Assembly: GCA_021792235.1 (NCBI GenBank)
Contig: JAJYVC010000003.1
Span: 960 to 39,058 of the forward strand
DNA length: 38,099 nucleotides
Origin: Candidatus Micrarchaeota archaeon
GTDB taxonomy: Archaea > Micrarchaeota > Micrarchaeia > Micrarchaeales > CABMGC01
Direction: 5' to 3'
Shown here in pieces: positions 16,860 through 21,196 of this stretch; position 1 is the first letter of the stretch, and every line of letters begins with the position of its first letter. Below the pieces are notes generated by a model that ran no database searches, was not told where the DNA came from, and saw only the letters and a program-made list of their open reading frames with translations. Both the position numbers and the translations under genes were made by a program.

Positions 16860-16939
16860 TAAACCGTGCCTCATCACAACCTGCAAGCCAAGCTGCAGCC
16901 AACGCATAATCTAATATACTTGCCGAACGAAGGGTTGAT

Positions 16940-17584
16940 GTGGCTGATGATATGCTGGTTCTCTCAATAACGTCATGGTTGCTGCAGGTCATCTCAGGAA
17001 CCTACTCAACCATAAATACGTTTATAACTACACATGGGCTAGCGGCCATAGTGGCGCTGATGGCCCTGGAATCTGCATCTTTACCAATACCAAGCGAGGT
17101 AATACTGCCTCTTGCGGGCAGGTTTGCGGCAGCTGGTGATTTCAGTTTATATCTGGCTATTGCAGCATCGATAGTCGGTACAGTGATAGGGATAACGGTA
17201 GATTATGCAATAGCATATGTGCTGGAAAAGGAGGTAGTGTACAAGCACCTAAGTGCATTCCACATAAAGAAGTCTGATCTTGACGCATTCGATGCGTGGT
17301 TCGCAAAGAACGGCGCATTCGCAGTCTTCGTCGCAAGGCTGCTCCCTGTGGTAAGGGGGCTGATAAGCCTACCAGCCGGGTTCGCAAAGATGTCGCTAAG
17401 GGACTTCTACTTGTACTCGATAGCAGGGTCGCTGATATGGAATGTCGCATTGATAATGTTCGGGTACTGGGCCCTAGCAACATCTAATGCACAGCTCATG
17501 TTTGCTGCAATTGCCGCATTTGCTATAGTGCTTTACCTTACATACAGGATAGGCATGAAAAGGATAAGCAGACACAGCAAGTAG
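16940..17584 (+). CDS. DedA-family membrane protein
   Basis: LESASLPIPSEVIL..AG, F..RLLP.VR..IS.PAG, GSLIW. Confidence 0.9.
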   Translation: MADDMLVLSITSWLLQVISGTYSTINTFITTHGLAAIVALMALESASLPIPSEVILPLAGRFAAAGDFSLYLAIAASIVGTVIGITVDYAIAYVLEKEVVYKHLSAFHIKKSDLDAFDAWFAKNGAFAVFVARLLPVVRGLISLPAGFAKMSLRDFYLYSIAGSLIWNVALIMFGYWALATSNAQLMFAAIAAFAIVLYLTYRIGMKRISRHSK

Positions 17585-17623
17585 CGCGCAGATGGGAAAT
17601 GCGAATTATATGCGTCACAGAAC

Positions 17624-17953
17624 CTATGCGGCTTTTGATTCAAGTATGTAGTTCTTCACTATCTTTATTACTTGGTCGATTGCCTTCTTTATGTCTGCCT
17701 CGGTCTTAGCTCCGGTGCATATTATCTTTCCGTTCTTGAACAGGAGCAGTGCTGTCTTTGGTTCATGTATCTTGCATATGGCGCCAGGGAACTGCTCTGG
17801 CTCATAATCGACGTCAGGCGACGCCTTTGCTATGCCGTAAAGGTCAAGCTCGACACCAAGGTCGGCACTTGCTACTATGTTCTCTATCTTGAACTTCGTG
17901 TTAAGCTCAACACGCTTACCTGACTTTGTCTTAGCAGCATTTGAGTTACCCAT
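17624..17953 (-). CDS. Single-repeat TATA-box-binding-protein-like protein (109 aa)
   Basis: One full TBP repeat: IENIVASADL...LDL..IA.....DYEPEQFPG.I.KI.EPK..LLLFKNGKIICTGAK.E.D. Bounded by dedA and rpl21e with no room for a second repeat. Confidence 0.9.
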   Translation of the reverse strand: MGNSNAAKTKSGKRVELNTKFKIENIVASADLGVELDLYGIAKASPDVDYEPEQFPGAICKIHEPKTALLLFKNGKIICTGAKTEADIKKAIDQVIKIVKNYILESKAA

Positions 17954-18049
17954 TTATACCACTATTTAAAGATATCTACTGAAAGGTATTTATATATGCA
18001 TACCAAAAGGTATCTTGCCTGATTGTATACAATTAGCATAGCTGATAGA

Positions 18050-18337
18050 ATGTCGCAGAGGTCGCACGGATTGTTTGTGGGAAGAACGAGGCAGCTTGCA
18101 AGGCACCACCGATTGTCCAGAATGGGAATAACAGGACTAATAAAAGAGTTCAAAATTGATGACAGAGTAGTGATACTCCCAAAGGGCAACTTCAAGAACA
18201 TACCTCATCCCAGGTACAAGGGAAGGGTGGGAAGGGTGATAGAGAAGAGAGGTGCCGCCTATGTCGTTGAGGTTGAAACCTCAAGGTCCAAATCAGCAAA
18301 GATAATAGTGCCTCAGGTGCACCTTGAGAAGGCATGA
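18050..18337 (+). CDS. rpl21e: 50S ribosomal protein L21e
   Basis: SHG....TR..L, F...D.V.I, PHPRYKGRVG.V...RG.AY.V.V, P.VHL. ATG 18050. Confidence 0.93.
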   Translation: MSQRSHGLFVGRTRQLARHHRLSRMGITGLIKEFKIDDRVVILPKGNFKNIPHPRYKGRVGRVIEKRGAAYVVEVETSRSKSAKIIVPQVHLEKA

Positions 18338-18392
18338 ACAGGCATCTGGCATAATGGAATCCTGACTTATTCTGCAGTCTGTTCGTACAAAA

Positions 18393-18445
18393 TACTTAAA
18401 TCCGCAGACAGCGGATTAGTACAATGCTGCAATTTTGCAGTTGTA
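18393..18445. other. Two adjacent inverted repeats between rpl21e and the HAD gene (terminator or operator candidates)
   Basis: TACT..AATCCGC-agaca-GCGGATT-AGTA and TACAA..CTGCAA-tt-TTGCAG-TTGTA. Confidence 0.4.
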
Positions 18446-18463
18446 AAGGCGATAAAAGATATC

Positions 18464-19117
18464 ATGAAACCATACAAGCATATATTCTTCGACTGGGATG
18501 GCTGCGTAGCCGACACTCTGGGCATGTGGTTCAGCGCGATAGACTCTTCGCTGGACGAATGCAGGATACGTCATTCAGAACGTGATGTACTCTTCCTTCT
18601 GAACAATCTCTATACTGGTGCCATGCGGCTTGGAATGAATCATGACGAATACGGGGTGTTCAAGAAAATGGTCTATGAAAAGGGCGAGGCAAACGCTGAA
18701 AATGTCCGTTTGTACGAAGGTGCAGAACAGCTGCTTGGTAGACTCAAGGCAGGCGGCAAGAGCATCGCGCTTATATCGAGCGGTTCAAGGGGGCCTCTTG
18801 ACCGCATGCTCAGGATCACTGGAGCGAGGTGGTATTTCGATTTAGTGGTCAGCGGATCCGACGTCGAGAATAGGAAACCGGATCCCGAGGGCATAGCGCT
18901 TGCGCTTGCTAAGTTGGGATCTGAGAAGAACGAAGCCATAATGGTCGGGGACTCGGATCATGACCTTGAAGCTGCGAGAAATGCAGGCATAGATTCGGTG
19001 CTCTTTTACCCTGACACCCACTCGTCCTTCTACGATCTGCAGCTTCTAAAGACCTCAAGGCCAACCTACACTGTAAGCAGATTCGACGAACTTGCCCGGA
19101 TACTTATACTGGGTTAG
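18464..19117 (+). CDS. HAD-superfamily hydrolase (phosphoglycolate phosphatase-like, subfamily IA)
   Basis: FDWDGCVAD, ISS, RKPDPEG, MVGDSDHDLEAARNAG. Confidence 0.9.
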   Translation: MKPYKHIFFDWDGCVADTLGMWFSAIDSSLDECRIRHSERDVLFLLNNLYTGAMRLGMNHDEYGVFKKMVYEKGEANAENVRLYEGAEQLLGRLKAGGKSIALISSGSRGPLDRMLRITGARWYFDLVVSGSDVENRKPDPEGIALALAKLGSEKNEAIMVGDSDHDLEAARNAGIDSVLFYPDTHSSFYDLQLLKTSRPTYTVSRFDELARILILG

Positions 19118-19692
19118 AAGTGCTCCCTTGCAGGAGGCTTGGTCAGGATGTAGAACCTGCTGTCTCCCTTGAGCTCAAGTATAACTCTTTCGGTCAGAAG
19201 CTTGACGGGATCCTGCAGAAGGGGTACGCGCTTAGATATATCCTCAAAATTCTCGAACGGTTTTTCGTCCCTCGCGTCAAGCAGGGCTGCGAGGTGCTTC
19301 TTGCCTATGCCTGGAAGTAGCTCCAGCGAGTGCACCCTTATGTTCAATGGACCTGCGCTGTTGAATATGGCTACGAATTTCTTCTCGTTGCCTTTTATCA
19401 GGTTGCTTACTGCAGTGTGAAGCTCGTTCTTCGAGACCTCTGTAAGATCATTGAACATCAATCGTCCTTTTATTATTGCTATCTTGTCCCTTTCACCCTT
19501 GCCTATGTACACCCTCTCACCTATTCTTATGTCAGGGCTCTTTGGCACTGCCTCAAGGAGCGTGAACTTCTCTTCGCCTATCATCTGCACTACCGGTTCA
19601 GATCTAACTGAGGTTGACCTGCCTGTAGGAAGGAAGTCTAGCACTATTGCATATTCTTCAAGATTCTCCCTTCTCTGCTCTAGCTCCTGCAT
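19114..19692 (-). CDS. DUF655-family predicted RNA-binding protein
   Basis: EEYAIVLDFLP.G, QMIGE..FTLLE, RVYIGKG.R, HSLELLPGIGKK, F..F.D. This family normally lies downstream of rpoF. Confidence 0.9.
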   Translation of the reverse strand: MQELEQRRENLEEYAIVLDFLPTGRSTSVRSEPVVQMIGEEKFTLLEAVPKSPDIRIGERVYIGKGERDKIAIIKGRLMFNDLTEVSKNELHTAVSNLIKGNEKKFVAIFNSAGPLNIRVHSLELLPGIGKKHLAALLDARDEKPFENFEDISKRVPLLQDPVKLLTERVILELKGDSRFYILTKPPAREHF

Positions 19693-19713
19693 CACAACAC
19701 CCCAAAACAAAAG

Positions 19714-20055
19714 TTATTTAGAATAGCTCTTCACTACGGCAAGTATCTTGTTCACTGTCTCGTCTTCCGCAGGCTGCCTGTTCTTGTCCATTGCAAGGAT
19801 CAGCTTGGCAAGGCTGGCGTCGTCCGGCATTATTTCTATGAACTTGAGGGCAAGTCTCTCGTCAAGCCCGAGCTCCTCGAGCTCCTTCTTCATCCTCTTG
19901 GCATCAGATCCCTTCAGCTTGGAGAACCTGCCAGCGTACTCGTAAGCAAGCGTCTGCTCGTAGCCAAGCTCGCCCTCCTTCTTTCTGTCCTCTAGTATGT
20001 CGAGGACTTCGGGCACGGAGACTAGCTTGCCACCATATTTCTTCTTTCCTGCCAT
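19714..20055 (-). CDS. rpoF: RNA polymerase subunit F (Rpo4)
   Basis: VS.PEV..IL, ELGYEQ..A.EY...FSKL, A.K..EI.P. Adjacent to DUF655. Confidence 0.85.
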   Translation of the reverse strand: MAGKKKYGGKLVSVPEVLDILEDRKKEGELGYEQTLAYEYAGRFSKLKGSDAKRMKKELEELGLDERLALKFIEIMPDDASLAKLILAMDKNRQPAEDETVNKILAVVKSYSK

Positions 20056-20179
20056 GAATAGCACCTTAAGCCAGCTATATTATGCCTGATGCTTAATTTA
20101 AACCTTTTGTATGGCCGGCGCAGGGCATACCAAAAACTGAAGTAAACGCTTATAAACAATGAATGATCTCCTATGAGCA

Positions 20180-21196
20180 GTGCAGGTTATGGATGGAAGC
20201 GAAGTTTCAATAGTGTCAATTGCCAACACAATGCTAATAGATGCCATACTCGGATCAAACAGCGTTGATGAGGCAAGCCTTGCAATAAGGCTTGGCGCAG
20301 ATGTCAACTCACTTAACCCTGTGGACATAATACACAACGGGGTGAAAAGGACCGTCGGCGTCACTCCGCTTATGGGCAGTGTCACTAGATCTGGCAGGGA
20401 TCCAAGGATAGTTGAGCTGCTGCTTGAGAACGGTGCAGACCCGACCTACCACAAGGCCACCAGCAGGACAGGCGTCATACACCTTGCAGCATATTCCTGC
20501 ACTCCAGAGATAATCAACGCCCTTGTCCGGTCCAAGCTTGTCGATGTCAATTTGCCTGACAATGATGAAACAACCCCGTTAGTATATGCTATAAAGGCCC
20601 GCAAGCCACAGAACATGAGGGCACTTCTGGATGCAGGCGCAGACGTGAATTACGGAGGACCAGAAGGAATACTGCCGGTGATCGAGGCTACGAAGGGCAA
20701 TGATGATCATGCACTGTCCATCCTTTTCGAGTACGGGGTAAATGTCAATGTGAGGGACAGCGAATTGGCATCGCCTCTGCATTATGCTGCCATGCTCAAC
20801 AACACGGGCATAGCGAGGATGCTTATTAGGAAGGGTGCAGACCTCGATGCAATGGATGGAAACGCGCAGACGCCGCTGCTCAGGGCATGCTTTGACGGAA
20901 ATGCCGATGTCGCAAAGGTTCTGGCAGATGCTGGTGCTGATGTTAACGCAAAGGATGTTGCAGGAATGACTCCGCTAATGCTTGCTGTAAAGTCGGGTGA
21001 TGCTGAACTTGCAGCTTATCTAATTTCGAAATCAGCCGACGTGAGGGCGGTCGATGCGCAGGGCTACGACGCGCTAACTTATGCATATGCAAAGAGAGAC
21101 AATGGGCCTCTGGTAAAGCTGCTGAGGGATGGTAACGAGGCAGCATTGCAGCTCAGGAGAGACGGCATTTCTACAGAAAGAAGAAAGGTAAAATAG
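20180..21196 (+). CDS. Ankyrin-repeat protein
   Basis: About 8 repeats of the TPL..A....N...V..LL..GAD.N type (e.g. SPLHYAA, TPLLRA, TPLMLA). Confidence 0.92.
   Translation: MQVMDGSEVSIVSIANTMLIDAILGSNSVDEASLAIRLGADVNSLNPVDIIHNGVKRTVGVTPLMGSVTRSGRDPRIVELLLENGADPTYHKATSRTGVIHLAAYSCTPEIINALVRSKLVDVNLPDNDETTPLVYAIKARKPQNMRALLDAGADVNYGGPEGILPVIEATKGNDDHALSILFEYGVNVNVRDSELASPLHYAAMLNNTGIARMLIRKGADLDAMDGNAQTPLLRACFDGNADVAKVLADAGADVNAKDVAGMTPLMLAVKSGDAELAAYLISKSADVRAVDAQGYDALTYAYAKRDNGPLVKLLRDGNEAALQLRRDGISTERRKVK

Follow-up and report, generated by a model that had tools for sequence, protein, structure and literature searches.

The window analysed here, i.e. the whole stretch of 38,099 nucleotides from a Candidatus Micrarchaeota archaeon, encodes a TATA-binding protein (TBP) with a single repeat. 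The question raised by this locus is which role such a half-TBP fills: that of a basal TBP, that of one part of a split TBP, that of an accessory factor, or none, if the gene is an artefact of the assembly. The features needed for the analysis are the following.

17624..17953, minus strand: complete gene of the single-repeat TBP, 109 aa, with the stop codon at 17624-17626 (open reading frame and Pfam TBP).
17897..17953, minus strand: N-terminal basic leader, residues 1-19 (orthologue alignment).
17648..17896, minus strand: TBP repeat, residues 20-102, with strands S1-S5 and helices H1 and H2 (Pfam, AlphaFold2 and PDB folds).
17792..17806, minus strand: stirrup motif Y50-E51-P52-E53-Q54, unchanged in all 59 aligned sequences; it corresponds to the glutamates of the C-lobe stirrup with which TFB/TFIIB makes contact.
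17738..17791, minus strand: segment from F55 to F72, in which both Phe match the DNA-kinking pair of one lobe (alignment, 1pcz).
17954..18049, no strand: divergent intergenic spacer of 96 nt between the TBP gene and rpl21e, with TATA-like boxes at 17987-17994 and 17963-17970.
18050..18337, plus strand: ribosomal protein L21e (rpl21e), the divergent neighbour, which marks the ancestral TBP locus (Pfam L21e).
19114-19710, minus strand: DUF655, a member of the conserved neighbourhood (Pfam).
19714-20064, minus strand: RNA polymerase subunit Rpo4/RpoF, a member of the conserved neighbourhood (Pfam).
16940..17584, plus strand: VTT/DedA-family membrane protein, convergent and downstream (Pfam VTT_dom).

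The reading frame at 17624-17953 (minus strand) begins with ATG and ends with a clean stop. Its 109-aa product was matched once by the Pfam TBP family (PF00352), at residues 20-102 and over profile positions 1-85 of 85, with an E-value of 1e-30 and 105.8 bits against a cut-off of 22.9. The frame with exactly one TBP repeat, described in the initial annotation, was thereby confirmed. No Pfam domain other than TBP was detected in the protein, which has no fused catalytic domain. The short basic leader, also claimed there, contains K8, K10, K13 and R14; its sequence varies among the aligned orthologues while the Lys/Arg-rich character is kept. The TBP stop codon is separated by 39 nt (about 40 bp had been stated) from the stop of the VTT/DedA gene, which ends at 17584. 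On the other side, the distance to the ATG of rpl21e at 18050 is 96 nt, and beyond rpl21e a HAD hydrolase, DUF655 and Rpo4/RpoF are located. The Pfam assignments of the convergent VTT/DedA and divergent rpl21e neighbours agreed with the annotation.

The residues singled out in the initial annotation, E24-N25-I26-V27, Y50-E51-P52-E53-Q54, F55-P56-G57, L70-L71-F72 and C79-T80-G81, were all present. In the alignment of 59 single-repeat orthologues, N25, I26, V27, A28, S29, Y50-I59, L70-K76, I78, C79 and G81 were invariant, and E24 and T80 were each retained in at least 90% of the rows. In TBP-DNA structures, a Phe pair in each TBP lobe kinks the DNA, and Asn, Val and Thr at the saddle centre form the DNA face. 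F55 and F72, invariant in the 59 sequences, align with the Phe of both repeats of 1pcz, and the DNA-face residues N25, V27 and T80 align with their equivalents in both 1pcz lobes. The stirrup residues E51 and E53, likewise invariant in all 59, align to the C-repeat stirrup of Pyrococcus woesei TBP (1pcz). According to PMC7221094, the stirrup glutamates at C.L3.2 and C.L3.4 of the C lobe constitute the TFB/TFIIB contact.

The dN/dS ratios, determined by the Nei-Gojobori method with the window gene as the reference and rough because of dS values above 1, were 0.028-0.071 against 8 orthologues of the genus and 0.08-0.18 against 5 of 6 orthologues from other genera, the sixth being saturated. The half gene is clearly under strong purifying selection; the values of 0.03-0.07 within the genus are far from the ratio of about 1 that the initial annotation had named as speaking against its proposal.

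The source assembly comprises 1.02 Mb in 64 contigs and is 90.4% complete. A Pfam scan of the whole assembly resulted in one TBP match, namely the gene at 17624-17953. In a six-frame hmmsearch of all open frames of at least 30 aa, performed with a profile from 146 TBP repeats and with all filters off, the gene was recovered at 4.4e-40, and the next best frame reached an E-value of only 0.25; no second TBP repeat, intact or broken, was thus detected genome-wide. The genome search proposed in the initial annotation accordingly yielded neither a canonical TBP nor a second half-gene, and its statement that no frameshifted second repeat can fit was upheld. At 90.4% completeness in 64 contigs, the absence of a partner is argued from the genus and the closed relatives and not from this assembly alone. 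The TFB of the same genome is of the canonical kind and is encoded by one gene with two cyclin repeats (contig C28).

The order survey covered 41 genomes including the window's own, 40 of them with a TBP match, and two repeats sharing one frame were found in 0 of the 41. Within the genus, exactly one TBP match was obtained in 12 of 13 genomes (window genome counted) and none in the remaining one, which is 89% complete. Among other genera of the same family, 4 of 12 genomes had one match and 8 of 12 had two unlinked half genes, and two unlinked half genes were present in all 15 genomes of the sister family. The second, unlinked half gene of these 8 and 15 genomes is referred to as paralogue B and the copy orthologous to the window gene as A; B is absent from the window's genus, as no genome with two matches occurs among the 13. 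Two-repeat TBPs initially encountered within the order, on contig 43 (8.4 kb) of G159 and contig 77 (3.7 kb) of G054, lack the lineage signature described below and resemble the TBPs of other archaea; judged by their sequences they are probably binning contaminants and were left out.

At the level of the phylum, 201 genomes of at least 80% completeness were surveyed, and 196 had a TBP match. Exactly one TBP repeat was counted from the survey table in 58 of the 201: in 22 of the 36 genomes of the window's family, in 1 of the sister family and in 35 of other families. Families f4, f5, f8, f9 and f13 have the ordinary arrangement, in which a single frame of 190-220 aa contains both repeats. Two of the genomes counted in the surveys, G038 and G211, are unpublished, and the conclusions do not hinge on either.

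This distribution bears on the alternative that the half-TBP acts only as a heterodimer, the partner being either a B copy missed by the assembly or a protein diverged beyond recognition. Such an obligate pairing is unlikely, although it has a certain basis. B is carried by 8 of the 12 family genomes outside the genus and by 15 of 15 in the sister family, the window genome is 90.4% complete, and of the 10 NCBIfam TBP models, 9 aligned B best to their C half and 7 aligned the window protein best to their N half. The frequency of B among the relatives would also allow an ancestral working form of A with B, in which A alone is weaker. However, nothing better than E 0.25 was found in the organism's own genome, and the 12 genus genomes with a match have one each and none has two. 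In the window's family, the single-contig genomes G060 (771,545 bp) and G064 (852,977 bp) each possess a single half gene, with rpl21e and DUF655 as its neighbours, and exactly one repeat is also found in the 35 genomes of other families of the class. Moreover, when the repeat of protein A is compared between genomes that have B and those that lack it, only 10 of 89 majority positions differ; none of the 10 lies in strand S1, and the predicted interface is unchanged. For the same reason, an adaptation of A following the loss of B was rejected. The suggestion of the initial annotation that the protein is one half of a split TBP consequently fails for this genome, which is without paralogue B, and keeps some basis in the sister lineages that carry it.

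Of 166 stretches that encode a relative, 80 loci were kept. The position of the gene was determined by comparison with 99 related loci (L002-L100). A one-repeat frame of approximately 94-134 aa was found in all of them except L038, which has an in-frame tandem repeat copy at a contig end. The half gene is adjoined by rpl21e in 90 of the 99 loci, in line with the single-repeat orthologues beside rpl21e that the initial annotation had proposed to look for; the two genes are divergent in 89 of the 90, with a median of 89 nt between the starts. The rpl21e/RpoF/DUF655 neighbourhood also flanks 10 of 10 two-repeat TBP loci of other families and the A-type copy of the sister family (5 loci), and paralogue B is sited elsewhere in 8 of 8 loci. 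As the neighbourhood is shared with two-repeat TBPs, the window gene is orthologous to TBP by position and sits where the ancestral TBP gene was located. The initial annotation had also offered the role of an alternative factor or modulator of TBP; this is contradicted by the ancestral locus and by the lack of any other TBP in the genome. Two-repeat orthologues at the locus, which it had named as evidence against a half-TBP, do occur, but only in families of the class distant from the window's and with homogenised repeats; no genome searched in the window's order has them.

The history of the repeat number was followed with a DUF655 tree of 53 rows and 191 columns, drawn from 98 loci with a DUF655 match and consisting of all genome-survey loci and every fourth of L021-L100. 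Two clades were obtained, each with an SH-aLRT of 99. The first contains 41 rows, all single-repeat (families f1, f3, f7, f10, f11, f12, f14, f15, f17 and f18), and the second 12 rows, i.e. the 10 two-repeat loci and the single-repeat family f16. Two changes of the repeat number are needed over the 53 rows; being a single-gene tree with a midpoint root and without an outgroup, it leaves the direction of the changes unsettled. Since only two changes suffice, the single-repeat state is of ancient date and has been stable in one of the two main branches of Micrarchaeota. Frequent toggling between one and two repeats was rejected on the same count.

The AlphaFold2 model of the monomer (mean pLDDT 85.5) has the helix-grip half-saddle fold with a five-stranded sheet and two helices. 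All 44 PDB matches at E ≤ 0.001 in the fold search were TBPs. The model superposed on M. jannaschii TBP with an rmsd of 0.8-0.9 Å over 72-74 columns and on archaeal TBP lobes with 0.8-1.2 Å, at a fold-alignment identity of 42-48%; the TM value of about 0.43 by target length corresponds to the half of TBP that is covered.

The predicted homodimer scored 0.72, compared with 0.01 for the best control. Among proteins of known structure, 20 of 30 pairs of one chain attained the mark for the dimer score, as did 1 of 23 single chains; these counts are approximate because a custom alignment was used for the dimer prediction. The runs agreed in at least 98% of the contacts, and the pLDDT of the partner was at least 88. 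The predicted interface is formed by residues 17-34 and the last helix, and the predicted contacts 26:26 and 27:23-26 correspond to an antiparallel S1-S1' pairing, as between the lobes of a fused TBP. Leader residues 4-19 rest on the partner subunit in the predicted dimer, where they would match the path of the inter-repeat linker of a fused TBP. The dimer score may partly be a memory of the model for solved two-lobe TBPs, because these hold the S1-S1' interface within one chain. With this taken into account, self-pairing through S1 is the most likely arrangement of the half-TBP according to the models.

The mixture of repeat-1 and repeat-2 features, seen by eye in the initial annotation, was reproduced numerically. 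P. woesei TBP, to which the window protein was matched at 1.6e-44, aligned with it through both lobes alike (75.6 and 77.1 bits), and the per-position N-versus-C log-odds of the window repeat were +5.5, +2.1 and +1.0 by thirds, compared with +14, +11 and +9 for typical N repeats and -13.5, -12 and -9 for typical C repeats. Intermediate log-odds per position were characteristic of all Micrarchaeota repeats. A chimeric collapse, in which the start of repeat 1 is joined to the end of repeat 2, is unsupported, as the sign of the log-odds never switches. Profile classifiers trained on two-repeat TBPs from outside Micrarchaeota, which assigned 24 of 24 held-out N and 22 of 24 held-out C repeats correctly, gave +6.6 (N-leaning) for the window repeat and -5.3 to +2.7 for the B paralogues.

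A tree against separated N and C repeats had been suggested in the initial annotation. In the first such tree, based on 87 columns of 146 repeats, other TBPs formed separate N and C groups, with SH-aLRT values of 89 and 93, and the Micrarchaeota halves together with the fused N and C repeats of the phylum formed one group (SH-aLRT 96) apart from both. A more careful tree with 83 rows did not reproduce the group of all Micrarchaeota repeats exactly, although its monophyly was not rejected (p-AU 0.38). A placement of the Micrarchaeota N repeats beside other N repeats was rejected (delta lnL 78.6, p-AU 0.0075) in a test whose groups were named after the first tree had been viewed.

The fused TBPs of the phylum have similarly uniform lobes. 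In the 10 Micrarchaeota two-repeat genes, N and C repeats were 55-75% identical, and 57-85% of the codons at the identical residues were themselves identical. The best 120 database matches consisted of 101 fused two-repeat forms and 19 halves of 103-130 aa; the N-C identity of these 101 fused forms was 51-91% (median 64%), compared with 29-53% (median 41%, n=71) for other two-repeat TBPs. Two proteins of 'Candidatus ainarchaeum sp.' bear the Micrarchaeota signature in two-repeat form. The high N/C and codon identities point to gene conversion or recent re-duplication of the fused genes. The undifferentiated state of the lobes throughout the phylum could reflect gene conversion, a loss followed by re-duplication or, least likely, lobes that were never differentiated. 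The Micrarchaeota phylum thus seems to have dispensed with the N/C asymmetry of the lobes, and, given the 51-91% identity in fused forms, a symmetric TBP evidently works there. Together with the status of the half-TBP as the sole repeat and the prediction of an S1 self-dimer, the identity of up to 91% between the repeats of relatives lends support to the homodimer that the initial annotation had suggested.

The last of these origins would make the half-TBP a never-fused survivor of the TBP that preceded the duplication, and the two-repeat TBPs of the sister branch a later, independent fusion. The separate group between the N and C clades (SH-aLRT 96), the undifferentiated log-odds and the p-AU of 0.0075 are compatible with such a relic, and if it were one, the homodimeric proto-TBP from the origin of archaeal and eukaryotic transcription would still exist. 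The idea is nevertheless very improbable. Gene conversion, or loss and then re-duplication, explains the same pattern without placing Micrarchaeota outside all other archaea. Differentiated N and C repeats are common to other archaea and to eukaryotes, for which reason the single-repeat TBP is most likely secondary and not a primary relic.

To characterize the promoters of the genome, 493 upstream regions were collected by crude gene calls, the distance to the preceding gene being 50 nt or more. The words TTAAAT, TTTAAA and TAAATA were enriched 11-13-fold between positions -50 and -11 (40 nt) of these 493 regions. With one mismatch allowed, TTTAAATA was present in 111 of the 493 regions with a peak at 36-40 nt before the ATG (29 of 111), and the reversed TTTAAATA word was nearly as common (97 of 493). 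The frequency of A was raised to 0.39-0.50 at the five positions 7-3 nt upstream of the TTTAAATA box. As indirect evidence, the pattern fits promoters of the TATA/BRE type. The TBP gene's own box, TATAAATA (minus strand, 17987-17994), starts 41 nt before its ATG, just beyond the genome-wide 5-nt peak bin (-40 to -36) for TTTAAATA-like boxes, and the 96-nt divergent spacer presumably acts as a promoter.

The half-TBP is probably the sole basal TBP of its lineage, working as a homodimer. This reading is based on the observed gene structure, uniqueness, conservation, positional orthology, purifying selection and retained functional residues; homodimerization is predicted by the structural models, and binding to TATA boxes and recruitment of TFB and RNAP would follow from the sequence. 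Two copies would pair S1 against S1 in an antiparallel manner, as the lobes of a normal TBP pack, resulting in a two-fold symmetric saddle of ten strands. The saddle would sit in the minor groove of TATA-like boxes with the approximate consensus TTTAAATA, where the two identical Phe pairs (F55 and F72) would kink the DNA. Each subunit would offer E51 and E53 of its Glu-Pro-Glu stirrup to TFB, so that TFB could dock at either end of the dimer. In archaea, the BRE sets the polarity of transcription; with a symmetric saddle, the choice of direction would fall to TFB, which would read the BRE beside the box, and not to TBP.

A different role, that of an accessory or regulatory single-domain protein comparable with TbpA or the Thermococcales proteins, would require that transcription is initiated without a classical TBP, and there is little to recommend it. 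Monopartite TBP-domain proteins of unsettled function are known in Archaea, but in the cases described in PMC3597702 they live beside a full-length TBP and those of Thermococcales are far diverged. In contrast, no other TBP accompanies the half-TBP in its genome. The protein reaches 105.8 bits with the repeat model and 1.6e-44 with P. woesei TBP, and its closeness to both lobes of the latter (75.6 and 77.1 bits), together with an identity of 47-48% in fold alignments, sets it apart from the strongly diverged Thermococcales group. It retains the DNA- and TFB-contacting residues and occupies the ancestral TBP locus of an organism that possesses TFB and TATA-like promoters.

The sequencing runs that contain the window's sequence originate from mine-drainage and sediment metagenomes. 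Two contigs from two studies, X1 (4,695 bp) and X3 (8,922 bp), match the window over positions 16900-18900 with 0 differences and without an indel; these contigs may come from the source samples themselves. Although short-read assemblies can collapse near-identical tandem repeats and a second copy lies in tandem and in frame at the end of a contig in the relative L038, it is scarcely conceivable that a two-repeat TBP was collapsed here or that the gene was cut by a sequencing error, as the neighbouring genes follow after 39 nt and 96 nt on a long contig, X1 and X3 show no difference, the same one-repeat gene recurs at 98 further loci that stem from many studies and were assembled with many programs, and single-contig genomes contain it too. 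The collapsed repeat against which the initial annotation had cautioned is not seen in the contigs of either study over 16900-18900; the single-repeat TBP gene is real and not an artefact.

The half-TBP can be compared with several known systems. The canonical archaeal TBP has two repeats in one chain of approximately 180 aa, as in the solved structures from Pyrococcus woesei (1PCZ, 1AIS, 1D3U), Methanocaldococcus jannaschii (2Z8U) and Sulfolobus acidocaldarius (1MP9), whereas the half-TBP has one repeat with undifferentiated lobe character. The two have in common the fold of the repeat, the Phe pair, the DNA face of Asn, Val and Thr, the Glu-Pro-Glu stirrup and the predicted packing of lobes through S1. 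In contrast to the canonical protein, the saddle would be built from two chains and be exactly symmetric, according to the models. This difference is also evident from the NCBIfam full-length TBP models NF001592-NF001601. The window protein failed all ten: even the best score, 97.8 bits, is far short of the cut-off of 278, and only one half of each profile is covered. The sequences of such halves are public; at least one (P0188) was named 'hypothetical protein' by NCBI, and some were named TBP; scores below the cut-offs may explain the name of P0188. Because of this naming and of the distance of the window protein from the full-length cut-offs, surveys that rely on names could under-count TBP in Micrarchaeota genomes.

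The two-repeat TBPs of families f4, f5, f8 and f9 form a further close system. They share with the half-TBP the conserved neighbourhood and the lineage signature, which consists of a Phe-Lys-Asn-Gly-Lys stretch and, following the stirrup, Gly-Ala-Ile, and they group with the halves (SH-aLRT 96). They differ from the half-TBP in being fused. The families with fused TBPs bear the names Micrarchaeota, Anstonellaceae and Bilamarchaeaceae.

Single-domain TBPs have been reported by Brindefalk et al. 2013 (PMC3597702), who describe the TbpA of Halobacterium and a diverged group of approximately 95 aa in Thermococcales. According to their article, both coexist with full-length TBPs, and TbpA is not essential (PMC3597702). 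Like these, the half-TBP is an archaeal, free-standing single TBP domain in the range of approximately 90-136 aa; unlike these, it is the sole TBP, highly TBP-like and fixed across many families. From the TBP-like domains of RNase HIII and DNA glycosylase it is distinguished by the lack of a fused catalytic domain. In a comparative study of DPANN (PMC8407392), TBP is only listed as conserved. The open-access literature of PMC and bioRxiv, as far as searched, contained no report of a Micrarchaeota or DPANN lineage whose only TBP has one repeat.

The origin of TBP by duplication and fusion of a self-pairing lobe has so far been a model without a living example, and a deep branch of Micrarchaeota appears to run all its transcription on a single lobe. 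If the homodimer is true, the N/C asymmetry, thought to have been fixed since the last archaeal ancestor, has been dispensed with in this branch. The protein would then provide a natural symmetric TBP, with which the setting of direction by TFB and BRE alone could be tested, and a direct experimental stand-in for the proto-TBP. With the homodimeric TBP ancestor, as outlined in PMC3597702 and PMC7221094, the half-TBP shares the single lobe that needs dimerization and the equivalence of both ends. The ancestor of the duplication-fusion model is hypothetical, whereas the half-TBP is a living protein.

The second, unlinked half-TBP gene (paralogue B) and further single-repeat copies were detected at the following loci:
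L101–L108, L110, L111, L114, L115, L118, L119: paralogue B
L146, L147, L148: three separate half-TBP genes in one two-contig genome, G122 (family f7)

Paralogue B was present in 8/12 genomes from other genera of the window's family and in all 15 genomes of the sister family. It formed a separate clade with SH-aLRT values of 97–99 and leaned towards the C-repeat, and rpl21e was never found beside it. In the case of G122, one of the three genes was located at the rpl21e/RpoF/DUF655 locus, while the remaining two were near-identical copies positioned elsewhere.

A partial and a full repeat within a single open frame were observed at one contig end:
L038:2-415: partial and full TBP repeat, Micrarchaeota MAG of the window's family

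The frame contains the final 33 residues of a TBP repeat, which are followed by a 16-residue linker and a complete repeat. The nucleotides of the partial repeat were identical to those at the end of the full one. The tandem is either a fresh two-repeat allele or an assembly artefact of the contig end.

Two-repeat TBPs of the ordinary type were determined in two Micrarchaeales bins:
L143: genome G159, contig 43, 8.4 kb
L144: genome G054, contig 77, 3.7 kb

Both proteins lack the Micrarchaeota signature, i.e. the core residues common to the half-TBPs and the fused Micrarchaeota TBPs, and both are encoded on short contigs, probably resulting from binning contamination. Micrarchaeota-type half-TBP loci were also noticed in records titled Candidatus Marsarchaeota, Candidatus Saccharimonadales bacterium or 'bacterium' (L030, L044, L049, L083, L092, L100), which are probably wrongly labelled bins. 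P0200 and P0223 are two-repeat TBPs from records labelled 'Candidatus ainarchaeum sp.'; the core signature occurs in each of their two repeats, and the identities between their N- and C-repeats were 0.68 and 0.60, respectively. The homogenised TBP type, in which the two repeats are unusually similar, may extend beyond Micrarchaeota, or the labels of these two records may be loose.

Within the window, one further gene was found between rpl21e and DUF655:
18464-19117: HAD-family hydrolase

This gene was present in only 3/19 and 3/80 of the related loci and is thus a recently inserted member of a gene cluster that is conserved apart from it. The translation of a 338-aa ORF at 20180-21196 of the window appeared by eye to be rich in ankyrin-type repeats.

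In the representative library, some TBP-family proteins had three or four TBP repeats per chain. P0002 (272 aa) contains three repeats of the archaeal type, P0011 (702 aa) combines a long tail with three matched TBP repeats, and P0001 (376 aa) corresponds to a eukaryote-type TBP core doubled exactly. These three proteins may be real multi-repeat forms or gene-model artefacts.
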